Part shown: positions 7,095-9,616 of the stretch, one piece after another | How the letters are laid out: every line of letters begins with the position of its first letter | Numbering within the stretch: position 1 is the stretch's first letter | Source: a virus | Taxonomy: Duplodnaviria > Heunggongvirae > Uroviricota > Caudoviricetes | IMG/VR virus record: IMGVR_UViG_2851938318_000003 | Length of the DNA stretch: 22,651 nt | Reading direction: 5' to 3' (one strand) | The notes under the pieces: model-generated | What the model saw: the letters and a program-made list of their open reading frames with translations, nothing else | Told to the model about the DNA's origin: nothing | Database searches by the model: none | Made by a program: the position numbers and the translations under genes

Positions 7095-7279
7095 ACGCCA
7101 CAATTCAAACGATACCAGAGCTTCTTATCCAGACACGAGGCAATCAGACCGAAGTGGCGAGGATGCTTTCCTGCGCAAGAGGAACAGTGCTCAAGTACAA
7201 CCGAGACAGCAAAGGCGAGCGTCATGTAATAGTTAACGGCGTCCTGATGGTCAAACAGGGCAAGAGGGGAAGACGATGA
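7091..7279 (+). CDS. ninH: NinH-like small HTH protein
   Basis: 62-aa ORF MNATIQTIPELLIQTRGNQTEVARMLSCARGTVLKYNRDSKGERHVIVNGVLMV... parallels lambda NinH as recalled (…TIPDMLVEAYGNQTEVARRLKCSRGTVRKY…). Confidence 0.68.
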   Translation: MNATIQTIPELLIQTRGNQTEVARMLSCARGTVLKYNRDSKGERHVIVNGVLMVKQGKRGRR

Positions 7280-7365
7280 GACTCGAAAGCGTAGCTAAAT
7301 TTCATTCGCCAAAAAGCCCGATGATGAGCGACTCACTACTGGCCACAGTTTATTGGTTTTCGTAA
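7276..7365 (+). pseudogene. Q: Stub of a lambda-type antiterminator Q gene (29 codons)
   Basis: ATG at 7276 overlapping the ninH stop encodes MRLESVAKFHSPKSPMMSDS, the N-terminus of lambda Q as recalled, then diverges (LLATVYWFS) and stops at 7363-7365. Confidence 0.6.
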
Positions 7366-7408
7366 CTGAGTCATTTTATTATTTTATTGCAACTTTTAAT
7401 CTTTTATA

Positions 7409-7455
7409 GTGCGAAATAAATGGAGCTGGCATTCATTTCGCACTTTATGTTTTTG
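7409..7455. terminator. Putative bidirectional intrinsic terminator between convergent genes
   Basis: Inverted repeat gtgcgaaat (7409-7417) / atttcgcac (7435-7443), followed by tttatgtttttgtt on the + strand and preceded by an A/T-rich stretch; sits between the + strand nin block and the - strand OMP gene. Confidence 0.45.
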
Positions 7456-7490
7456 TTGGACTTATGTTATTTTGATTGAATTCAATTCAG

Positions 7491-8450
7491 TTAAAAAAAG
7501 AAGGTGATTGCTCCATTTATAAATGAATAGTCATCCCCTGTCTTGAATTCTGATGTTACTTTATTAAATGCTAGTGTGAAGGCTACAGGTGCATACCCAA
7601 TTGTTGCGCCAACTTGATATTCATCAACAGTTTTGTTTAGCGATACTGTTGTTTGTTTCGTCTGTATTGTTTTTCCTTCGAGAGTATAGTTGCGATTGAC
7701 ATCTCGTCTTTCCATACCTGCAAAAATCTTGTATTTGAATCCGCTTGTATCGGACATATGCATTAAACCACGGGGAGCCAGCAGACCAAAGCCATTATCC
7801 GAATTGAAGGTTTTATCATTACCAATGGCAATGGTTGCGCCATATGCTACATATTGAAATAAGTTTCCAGTAACAGCAGAAACTTCAGGGTATAATCCAA
7901 CATTAGCACCTAAAATATCCATACTTGGTGTCATGGATAGCATCCCTTTTACAGTATAACCGTAGCGATTCTCTATTTGATCATCCCATGCATGATATTT
8001 TTCTGCCCCAATAATCTCATGAGCTTTATTTTGTACTTTCTGACCGCCTGCGTCGGGGCCAACAACACCTATGTCAGTACCTAATCGATAGCGAATCCAG
8101 TCATTCGCAAGGGAGTTCCATTCAATACCAGTGTGAGTGTATGCACTAAAAGCTCTGTCTCCAGTTACAGCTGTGTTGTGTCTTTTATTACTGCCTGATG
8201 GAGAGTAAATATCTTGCGCAATATGGAGAGATAATTGGCTCGAGTCTGAGATATCGTGGCTATATCCCAGAAATAAGCCTTGTGAGTAATCATCTCTGTT
8301 TTCATGTTTATTGCCATAAATATCATTAAGTATTGGTTGAAACTTCCCTGCATCATCATTTGCTAATGATAATGCAAGGCTGTTCGCGATAGCTGAACAC
8401 GTGGTAAATGACAGAGCAATAAAGACGCCAGCGATGACACTTTTTTTCAT
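7491..8450 (-). CDS. Outer-membrane beta-barrel protein; possibly lipid A 3'-O-deacylase LpxR family
   Basis: 319-aa ORF with ATG start and signal peptide MKKSVIAGVFIALSFTTCSAIA, Tyr/Gly/Thr-rich alternating-hydrophobic segments and C-terminal ...GAITFFF (aromatic terminal residue typical of OM barrels). AT-rich, reverse orientation relative to the phage late genes. The LpxR assignment rests only on size and general resemblance from memory. Confidence 0.65.
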   Translation of the reverse strand: MKKSVIAGVFIALSFTTCSAIANSLALSLANDDAGKFQPILNDIYGNKHENRDDYSQGLFLGYSHDISDSSQLSLHIAQDIYSPSGSNKRHNTAVTGDRAFSAYTHTGIEWNSLANDWIRYRLGTDIGVVGPDAGGQKVQNKAHEIIGAEKYHAWDDQIENRYGYTVKGMLSMTPSMDILGANVGLYPEVSAVTGNLFQYVAYGATIAIGNDKTFNSDNGFGLLAPRGLMHMSDTSGFKYKIFAGMERRDVNRNYTLEGKTIQTKQTTVSLNKTVDEYQVGATIGYAPVAFTLAFNKVTSEFKTGDDYSFINGAITFFF

Positions 8451-8926
8451 ATGTTATTGTCTTCCTTTTTTTTGAATGGTGCGCGTATTTTACATACATG
8501 AGTTTGTAATACAAGGTGCGTAATCAATATGATGTTTTATAATTGCGTGAGACAATTGATTTATTCGTTTTTTATTGCGGTTTTTATTATCTTTTAATGT
8601 AACGGTGTTTTTATTAAGTGTGTTTGCGTGGTGTTTTATGTTTTTTATAATTTTTATTTTATTAAATTTAAAAGCATTAGTAATGGCTATTCTATATAGC
8701 AATATAAGAACTGTTACAAAAAAAGGGGGGGGCAATTACAGGTAGTTATGGATGATGAGTGAAACAGATATTGGAGAACCGGGGAATGAATGATGTCTGA
8801 GTCTTATATATCAGAACTCCTTCGCTGTCGCTGGGGGCTCGTGTGCTTATGTCGTTTCCCCGATTCGGTTTTGAACGATTACCGAATGTTGAAGAATTAT
8901 GCCAAAATATAGAAAGGATTTACTGC

Positions 8927-9616
8927 ATGAATACCCAATATTTACAGTATGTTCGTGAGCAACTTATGGCAGCTACTGCTGACTTGAACGGAGCAACGAA
9001 AGGCCAGCTCGAAGCCTGGCAGGAGCATGCACAATTTGATACTGGTACATACAAACGAAAGAAGCCGCGCATTCTGGATGTGGTAACTGGCAAGATGATT
9101 ACGCTGGATAATACGCCGACTTCCGGTAAGCAGTCGTACGCAAAAGGTTCATCCATTGCTTTGGTCAGCCCGGTTGAATTCTCAACCTCTTCATGGCGCC
9201 GCGCGGTTTTGTCTCTCGATGAACATCAGAAAGCATGGTTGCTTTGGTGTTACAGCGAAAGCGTTCGATGGGGGCATCAGGTCACCATAACGCAATGGGC
9301 ATGGAGCGAGTTTAAAGATTTGTTAAGTAACAGAAAAATTGCAGGTAAGACACTGGATCGCCTGAAGACGTTAATCTGGCTGGCTGCACAGGATGTGAAG
9401 AGCGAACTTGCAGGGCGTGAGGCCTATGAATACCAGACACTGGCATCATTGGTGGGAGTGACAACAAAAAACTGGTCCGAGACATTTACTGAACGCTGGG
9501 TTGCAATGAAGCACATTTTTCTACAGCTTGATAGTGATGCTTTATTGCTTGTGACGAGAACACGTTCAAAACAAAAGGCAGCATTTTTACAGCAAAATAT
9601 TGCAAAACTGGATTAA
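8927..9616 (+). CDS. Putative late-gene antiterminator Q (non-lambda type)
   Basis: ORF immediately upstream of a tR'-like terminator and the late/lysis genes. The start is uncertain: the ATG at 8927 has an AAAGGA Shine-Dalgarno 8 nt upstream, while the track ORF begins at a GTG at 8843 (ATG at 8849). The protein (MNTQYLQYVREQLMAATADL...) is called Q mainly from position and vague family recollection. Confidence 0.5.
   Translation: MNTQYLQYVREQLMAATADLNGATKGQLEAWQEHAQFDTGTYKRKKPRILDVVTGKMITLDNTPTSGKQSYAKGSSIALVSPVEFSTSSWRRAVLSLDEHQKAWLLWCYSESVRWGHQVTITQWAWSEFKDLLSNRKIAGKTLDRLKTLIWLAAQDVKSELAGREAYEYQTLASLVGVTTKNWSETFTERWVAMKHIFLQLDSDALLLVTRTRSKQKAAFLQQNIAKLD

Follow-up and report, generated by a model that had tools for sequence, protein, structure and literature searches.

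What is the short open reading frame (ORF) that follows ninH in the prophage DNA of IMG/VR record IMGVR_UViG_2851938318_000003 (22,651 nucleotides, the whole of which is called the window here), and how did the genes downstream of it come to be there? The original prediction, made from the sequence alone, took the ORF to be the stub of a lambda-type antiterminator gene, Q, left at the junction where a foreign cassette with an outer membrane protein gene and a different Q had replaced the late-control module. Comparison of the locus with lambda, related prophages and complete Escherichia coli genomes indicates that the ORF is very probably a defunct remnant of a lambda-type Q gene, left as a scar by a single illegitimate event inside Q that joined the nin region to lpxR and a Q82-type module. 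The swap is old and shared, being present in phage 434 and ~620 E. coli genomes, and is not specific to the window.

Analysis of the ORF revealed an abrupt boundary between lambda Q and unrelated DNA. The 29-codon ORF (7276..7365, plus strand; translation MRLESVAKFHSPKSPMMSDSLLATVYWFS) opens, as had been described, right after ninH (7091..7279, plus strand; PF06322 at 2e-24), the last intact gene of a lambda/HK97-type nin region, and its ATG overlaps the ninH stop codon (ATGA) as in HK97. The 20 residues of the lambda Q N-terminus given in the original prediction were correct: lambda Q (NC_001416 43886-44509) begins with MRLESVAKFHSPKSPMMSDSPRATAS, the first 20 amino acids of the stub are all identical to it, and the DNA at 7276-7336 matches at 61 of 61 nucleotides. 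Alignment of the whole ORF to lambda Q, one of the checks that had been proposed, showed that this perfect stretch is followed by 14 in-register matches over Q nucleotides 62-84 (14/23, a value reached by none of 259 shifted registers) and then by background, with no decayed Q homology past nucleotide 84, where in-register identity equals that of the shifted registers. A blastn search of lambda 43800-45199 against the whole window returned one significant match (7266-7346, 93.9% identity, E 5e-30), and tblastn with lambda Q aligned codons 1-24 (E 6e-9). Homology to Q is therefore certain over 7276-7346 and probably extends to ~7359; the predicted remnant is real, but 71-84 bp of the old gene survive, not the first 60 bp.

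Searches of the window for further lambda Q or pR′ remnants, using blastn at word size 7 and tblastn, found none beyond 7266-7347, and lambda 44510-45199, containing the lambda-type pR′/Q-binding region, had no homology anywhere in the window. A Pfam search of the stub ORF returned no domain; the best stretch of the PF03589 match in lambda Q spans residues 113-199 (a position taken from lambda Q and a sibling Q described below), far past the 29 codons of the stub, which is a gene fragment and not a functional member of the Q-lambda family (PF03589). The stub is already annotated publicly. RefSeq labels 7276-7347 a pseudogene, 'antitermination protein, incomplete, missing C-terminus'. In the phage 434 record, CPT_434_64 is a coding sequence (CDS) described as 'antiterminator-like protein ... 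antiterminator Protein Q P03047, N-terminal fragment'. A literature search found no paper discussing the stub, and the 434 genome announcement (PMC9119081) is silent on it.

The replaced DNA was delimited by comparison with L006, a sibling prophage of E. coli Z1323CEC0009 picked among E. coli genomes matching ninH and the Q 5′ end. In L006, rusA-ninH is followed by a complete 624-nt lambda-type Q (PF03589) and then by the gene for WP_001302581.1, the product of a downstream membrane-protein gene common to L006 and the window lineage. The window is 97.5% identical to L006 over 6444-7346 (and 96.6% identical to HK97 over the same interval) and 98% identical over 9663-10495, with nothing alignable between. 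Because Q is intact in L006 and the flanks are shared, the swapped segment can be defined as window 7347-9662 (2316 bp), which stands in place of 671 bp in L006 consisting of Q codons 25-208 and the lambda-type pR′. Comparison with other lambdoid prophages, as had been suggested, thus gave the limits of the incoming segment and bore out a swap of the Q/late-control module, but the incoming DNA is composite and not one homogeneous cassette.

The left joint, J1, was placed at 7347..7360 from the loss of homology to full-length lambda-type Q genes, using alignments with lambda, HK97 and L006 together with sliding identity. It lies within coding sequence, homology is lost abruptly and the junction is identical in carriers, the pattern of a lambdoid 'novel joint' produced by illegitimate recombination. 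The L006-like ninH-Q arrangement is common, with homology to the window stopping at 7343-7346 in many genomes. The right edge falls at ~9660-9663, at the foot of a terminator at 9662-9690.

Between these edges, the alignments show a composite segment, in which an lpxR block (7347-8780) adjoins a module consisting of a rusA tail, ylcG and a Q82-type Q at an internal joint at ~8780/8781. At this joint, J2 (8781..8793, plus strand), alignment with rusA-ylcG-Q prophages identified the last 13 nt of rusA, including its stop codon, and from there 8781-9649 is 88% identical by blastn to positions 2501-3369 of one such prophage, L004. In other Q82 modules, rusA or ninG lies directly upstream of ylcG-Q, without lpxR. 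Lambdoid phages carry morons, autonomous cargo units such as lambda bor (annotated in the lambda record). The lpxR unit resembles a moron in its guanine-plus-cytosine (GC) content, 24-44% between flanks of ~50%, and in its absence from rusA-ylcG-Q and ninH-Q relatives. The lpxR block is AT-rich cargo of opposite orientation, with J2 as a second novel joint on its right; two novel joints, J1 and J2, imply that at least two illegitimate events built the unit.

Genome surveys showed that this unit is widespread and nearly uniform. The cassette is present in 621 of 5426 complete E. coli genomes, in 614 of them at >=99% identity, and the lpxR 3′ flank (7347-7490) occurs once each in 619 genomes and nowhere else (614 at >=99% identity), with a Q pseudogene annotated under the match in all 25 rows sampled. 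Carriers mostly belong to LEE-positive pathotypes (LEE, locus of enterocyte effacement), including O157:H7, O55:H7, O26, O111, O103, O121, O145 and enteropathogenic E. coli O127:H6. The exact junction 31-mer was found in 50 IMG/VR contigs, 49 of which also had an lpxR marker; in the sole contig without the marker the joint is near the contig end. Gene neighbourhoods of contigs encoding the identical LpxR contained only the stub-lpxR-ylcG-Q82 arrangement.

The DNA to the left of the stub is of two kinds. The stub follows ninH in 188 complete genomes, as in the window, and follows the ninI phosphatase gene in other sampled genomes and in phage 434; among the IMG/VR contigs, 27 had the ninI context and 22 the ninH context, with an identical joint. 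Upstream of the ATG, the ninH and ninI contexts show no relationship (~40% identity), and the stub and joint are identical; 46 of 49 IMG/VR copies of the stub are identical, and one of the three variants has a nonsynonymous change. The presence of an identical joint under two unrelated left contexts indicates that J1 has a single origin and that homologous exchange in or at the stub later transferred it, at least one crossover falling within the 71-bp 5′ stretch of Q or at its edge. As a separate observation, the lambda reference record has an unexplained misc_recomb feature at 43884-43885, just before the Q start codon, the same point at which the stub's ninH and ninI contexts part. In addition, an 8-bp unit, ATTTTATT, at 7373-7388 is present in two copies in the window and in most natural copies and in one copy in laboratory phage 434.

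We propose that illegitimate recombination inside Q, between codon 24 and ~codon 28, fused a nin region of the HK97/lambda type with DNA that contained lpxR and the Q82 module. The resulting unit would then have moved as one piece among phage 434 and the lambdoid prophages of LEE-positive E. coli. In exchanges with phages carrying lambda-type Q, the intact 5′ end of Q (61-71 bp) could have provided the homology on the left, and such exchange would have produced the ninH-stub version seen in the window and the ninI-stub version seen in 434 and O157. The scar itself has no mechanism; the functional parts are lpxR and the Q82-type switch.

Several points weigh against this account of the stub. 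J1 cannot be placed to the base, and the donor context of the lpxR block was not found. The sequence at 7337-7359 may be decayed Q or donor DNA with microhomology, and uniform decay does not account for the step from 0/61 to 9/23 mismatches, which may fit a first 61 bp refreshed by later exchanges or, alternatively, microhomology at the original joint. The stub also keeps a ribosome binding site (RBS), a start coupled to the upstream stop, an open frame and a CDS label in 434, such that translation of a 29-aa peptide may occur, and all copies are >=99% alike.

These last points could be taken to mean that the stub is a maintained small gene, its 29-aa peptide, or the coupling of its translation to ninH or ninI, being kept by selection. 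The intact ORF, the GAGGGG/GGAG-like RBS upstream, the ATGA overlap with the preceding gene, the 46 of 49 identical IMG/VR copies and the 'antiterminator-like protein' CDS in the 434 record all agree with such a gene. However, the entire 2.3-kb cassette is >=99% identical in 614 genomes, so that conservation here reflects recency and not selection; moreover, the ORF has no Pfam domain and ends far before the lambda Q domain (best stretch 113-199), the 9 codons of its tail are junction sequence, RefSeq lists the ORF as a pseudogene and one variant copy carries a nonsynonymous change. We therefore consider a selected small gene very improbable. That the likeness to Q arose by chance, or that the joint is an assembly chimera, is scarcely conceivable given 61 of 61 identical bases (E 5e-30) and the same joint in 619 complete genomes, 50 IMG/VR contigs and an independently sequenced laboratory phage.

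Two other histories accept the stub as a Q fragment and differ in how the neighbouring DNA arrived. The simple version put forward in the original prediction, a single replacement by one contiguous cassette of outer membrane protein gene and new Q from a donor with this exact arrangement, is a tenable though less favoured possibility. No intermediate was found, this lpxR allele being flanked by the stub and by ylcG-Q82 in every genome that has it, and one crossover between co-resident lambdoid prophages would be enough if the donor had lpxR beside ylcG-Q. Yet the internal novel joint at 8780/8781 cuts rusA to 13 nt and other Q82-type modules (rusA-ylcG-Q or ninG-ylcG-Q) lack any homologue of the lpxR block, which requires at least one more illegitimate event, before or after J1. 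The reverse direction, in which lpxR-Q82 was the older resident and the L006-type versions with lambda Q re-acquired a complete Q module, appears unlikely. L006 does share both flanks at 97-98%, and its degraded counterpart of the terminator (-7.1 kcal/mol, z score -0.24) could be a secondary state; but a truncated Q needs a complete precursor, such that lambda-type Q preceded J1 on the left arm regardless, and L006-like ninH-Q arrangements are common whereas the stub junction is apparently of single origin. None of these alternatives changes the main reading, a scar of one illegitimate event inside Q, within a unit assembled by at least one further event.

Searches for the source of the lpxR block returned little outside the carriers. 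No phage homologue of the block was found, and a distant-mode search with the lpxR 3′ flank recovered the same 619 loci only. The AT-rich non-coding spacer upstream of lpxR (8451..8789, 339 bp, GC content down to 24.5%) had no homologue outside the lpxR cassette and no plasmid match. A donor scan of genome contigs using very specific peptide patterns returned a single locus, and says little on other species. The Citrobacter lpxR locus was rejected as a donor, its homology to the window being confined to the CDS, as were plasmid lpxR alleles, which are 81% identical over the CDS and ~46 nt upstream only.

Analysis of the right-hand part of the swapped segment revealed a complete late-control module. 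The intergenic region that had been given as 390 bp is in fact the 339-bp spacer, and a 40-codon ylcG-like ORF at 8790..8912 (plus strand; RefSeq 'YlcG family protein', with PF26818 on the identical gene in related loci) had been missed. It is followed by a gene for a Q82-family antiterminator of 229 aa (8927..9616, plus strand; PF06323 1.1e-91), matching profile positions 1-216 of 220 with 306.8 bits (cut-off 25). Three unrelated Q families have been described: Q-lambda (PF03589), Q21 (PF06530) and Q82 (PF06323) (PMC9388147). The predicted larger, Q-like ORF unlike lambda Q was thus upheld, comparison of the window Q with lambda Q showing no similarity, but its start was revised. A start at GTG 8843 would give a 257-aa protein; RefSeq places the start at ATG 8927, and in the resulting 229-aa form the Pfam match already opens at residue 4, making GTG 8843 unlikely, and a note in the phage 434 record prefers the same start for close homologues. 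ATG 8927 is most likely the start. The window Q has 100% amino acid identity to the only complete Q gene seen in the late region of plaque-forming phage 434, which is indirect evidence that it is the working late-gene regulator; the module would supply the sole functional antiterminator. A sequence search found no solved structures related to Q82-type Q. In E. coli CP027675.1 (L062 2342-3030), the Q82-family gene beside lpxR is split between a pair of called ORFs (115 and 120 aa) and is apparently broken by a frameshift or stop, with lpxR intact.

A promoter scan identified a pR′-like late promoter at 9600..9628 (plus strand; -35 TTGCAA, 17-nt spacer, -10 TATACT), with its -35 element inside the end of Q. 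Downstream, at ~+6 to +14, lies an extended -10-like element, TGgTATGTT (9640..9648, plus strand), conserved as TGnTATnnT. In an alignment of six loci of the Q82 family, taken from E. coli and Klebsiella and encoding Q proteins with 65-100% identity to the window Q, the -35, the -10 and TGnTATnnT at fixed spacing are kept, and similarity ends at ~9660. At the phage 82 pR′, a TG-extended -10-like pause element is engaged by σ70 at a transcript length of 21, with the pause at +25 (PMC5001585, PMC3326312), and TGgTATGTT is by this likeness the presumed inducer of a σ70-dependent pause at which Q loads. The three bases that follow it in the window are GTA (9649-9651), and the pause at the pR′ of this module may behave differently.

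The terminator that had been predicted at 9662-9688 was found by scan at 9662..9690 (plus strand; fold -13.7 kcal/mol, z score -3.4), an intrinsic terminator 3′ of pR′. Its counterpart in L006 (2400-2450) has substitutions and a 4-nt deletion and forms no terminator hairpin (-7.1 kcal/mol, z score -0.24). If pR′ is constitutive, as in other lambdoid prophages, the terminated RNA would be ~55 nt (9635-9690), analogous to lambda 6S RNA or the StxS small RNA of Shiga toxin (Stx) phages (PMC7547250). We propose that ylcG, Q, pR′, the σ70 pause element and the terminator would form one late-control module in which Q and its loading site travel together; the right border would lie just past the pause site because inheritance of Q has to include the promoter-proximal site at which it loads.

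The outer membrane protein gene predicted on the reverse strand as AT-rich is lpxR, encoding the outer-membrane lipid A 3′-O-deacylase (7491..8450, minus strand; PF09982 7e-40, 137 bits; 3FID 3.6e-153; RefSeq name). Its GC content is 37-44%, against ~50% in the nin genes, and its direction of transcription opposes the phage early-right operon. Deacylase activity of LpxR in enterohaemorrhagic E. coli, and its co-regulation with LEE by Pch and Ler, have been reported (Ogawa et al. 2018, as cited in PMC6393859), and lpxR is associated with LEE-positive strains (PMC6724679).

On the 3′ side of lpxR, a hairpin at 7409-7443 followed by a U-rich tract, UUUAUGUUUUUGUU, forms a site at 7409..7457 that is terminator-like for transcription running rightward from nin to Q (plus strand; fold -16 kcal/mol, z score -2.95); it corresponds to the terminator predicted after the stub, although a consensus terminator scan does not list it. 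On the minus strand, 3′ of lpxR, the same hairpin has a perfect 15 bp stem (-20.3 kcal/mol, z score -5.0) without a U tract. On the 5′ side, the lpxR-ylcG spacer has a pair of homopolymers, A7G8, at 8718-8732, abutting a promoter-like site on the lpxR strand (GTAACA-17-TAGAAT, 8717-8689); in a promoter scan around lpxR and ylcG, promoter-like sites were no commoner than in shuffled sequence. The tract reads A7G6 in phage 434 and ends in G6, G7 or G8 in near-identical IMG/VR copies (5, 13 and 4 of the ninH-type copies, respectively), a variation that could reflect real slippage or homopolymer sequencing error.

In an intact phage, N-modified transcription from pR would be expected to cross the stub, the terminator-like site at 7409-7457 and antisense lpxR in order to reach ylcG-Q, after which Q would load at the complex paused near +25 of pR′ and read through the 9662-9690 terminator. 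This layout raises the idea that the head-on arrangement is itself functional, Pch/Ler-driven lpxR being transcribed against the only apparent read-through route to ylcG-Q; we regard this as quite unlikely. If it were true, virulence-inducing conditions could delay or damp late-gene and lysis expression by transcriptional collision or antisense RNA, prophage induction could switch lpxR off, and the A7G6-8 tract might tune the interplay.

Within the window, the late-control switch is probably idle, since the prophage remnant that carries it is disrupted by insertion sequences (IS) and lacks immunity, early-region and replication genes; lpxR is probably its useful survivor. The remnant lies between ybhC (1-1284, minus strand) and a PBP-family gene (22175-22651, minus strand) and contains three IS3-family copies (2861-4100, 13741-15049 and 19477-20786), each with an ALIL frameshift pseudoknot (3719-3835, minus strand; 14598-14714, minus strand; 19812-19928, plus strand). 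An Rfam scan of 7000-10000 found no match, the IS3-type ALIL pseudoknots elsewhere being the sole matches in the window. The lysozyme gene is broken at 13741, and, compared with strain E2863, an inversion covers window 1-2860, which comprises ybhC, a lambda-type integrase gene and the lysozyme gene's 3′ part. A 616-aa carbohydrate esterase of the SASA family (DUF1737 + SASA + DUF6645) is encoded at 11087-12937, 3′ of the late promoter, and is also found in phage 434. The same remnant contains a cluster of type III effector-like genes (15349-21671), including genes for an OspG/NleH-type kinase (15349-16239), Cif (16463-17293) and NleG (18351-18806), as well as an AvrPphF-ORF-2-like ORF (21018-21671, minus strand) with a weak match.

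For annotation, these results indicate that 7276-7365 should be treated as a Q pseudogene, that ylcG should be called at 8790-8912 and that Q should start at ATG 8927. They also give base-level limits for an exchangeable Q82-type module, containing Q, its promoter and the pause element and ending at the terminator foot, and show that the virulence-associated lpxR of LEE-positive E. coli is physically joined to this module and to the Q stub, a linkage that explains the movement of lpxR between prophages with lambda-type Q. The joint is a known, ordinary lambdoid mosaic joint, and the current understanding of lambdoid mosaicism is unchanged; what the analysis adds are the base-level borders, the composite nature of the segment, the gene identities, the distribution among genomes and the single origin followed by exchange at the stub.

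Comparison of the locus with known systems places it among the lambdoid mosaics. The stub resembles members of the lambda Q family (PF03589) in its position directly after the nin genes, in the ATGA overlap and in its first 61 nt/20 aa, which are identical, but it keeps only 24-28 of 207 codons and lacks both the PF03589 domain and a lambda-type pR′. In phage 434B, Q, the late promoter and the lysis genes are replaced by DLP12 DNA (PMC9119081, Feiss et al. 2022), with the crossover annotated at ylcG in the phage 434 GenBank record. This substitution and those of the lambda qsr′ type are similar to the event described here in that the Q-late promoter-lysis region was swapped for the syntenic segment of another lambdoid element (DLP12); in contrast, they are homologous exchanges at shared sequence that left no truncated gene, whereas J1 lies inside a gene with no homology on its right and is an illegitimate joint.

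The closest relative is phage 434 itself (OL657226.1), which is 99.4-99.6% identical to window 7265-13741 and carries the stub, lpxR, ylcG and a Q82-like Q as CPT_434_64 to CPT_434_67, together with the same terminator and downstream genes. It differs in having the ninI phosphatase gene as its left flank in place of ninH, one ATTTTATT copy and a G6 tract as opposed to two copies and G8, and in being a complete viable phage whereas the window is an IS-disrupted remnant. The late-control module is similar to Q/pR′ of phage 82 (Q82, PF06323) in its full-length Pfam match, in the position of Q after ylcG as in the other family loci examined in which ylcG is preceded by rusA or ninG, in the overlap of the promoter with the end of Q and in the TG-extended -10-like element at ~+6 to +14, 82 being compared by verbal description. 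Where the pause element ends, the next three bases are GTA in both the window and 434 and GCC in 82 (as described) and the five other aligned loci; GCC has been reported as needed for the 82 pR′ pause (PMC5001585). A further difference from 82-type modules is that rusA is cut to 13 nt in the window, with lpxR upstream in its place.

The cargo gene also has known counterparts. LpxR residues 24-319 align with Salmonella LpxR (PDB 3FID; 296 residues, E 3.6e-153), and the window protein conserves the N-D-D motif as well as the His that aligns with chain residue 122, which are catalytic residues; Salmonella lpxR is reported to be chromosomal, whereas that of the window is prophage-borne. Finally, the lpxR unit resembles lambdoid morons such as lambda bor in being an AT-rich host-fitness gene placed between phage genes, but, unlike bor-type morons, it is flanked by the nin region and Q, runs antisense to the early-right operon and has a truncated essential regulator gene as one of its borders.

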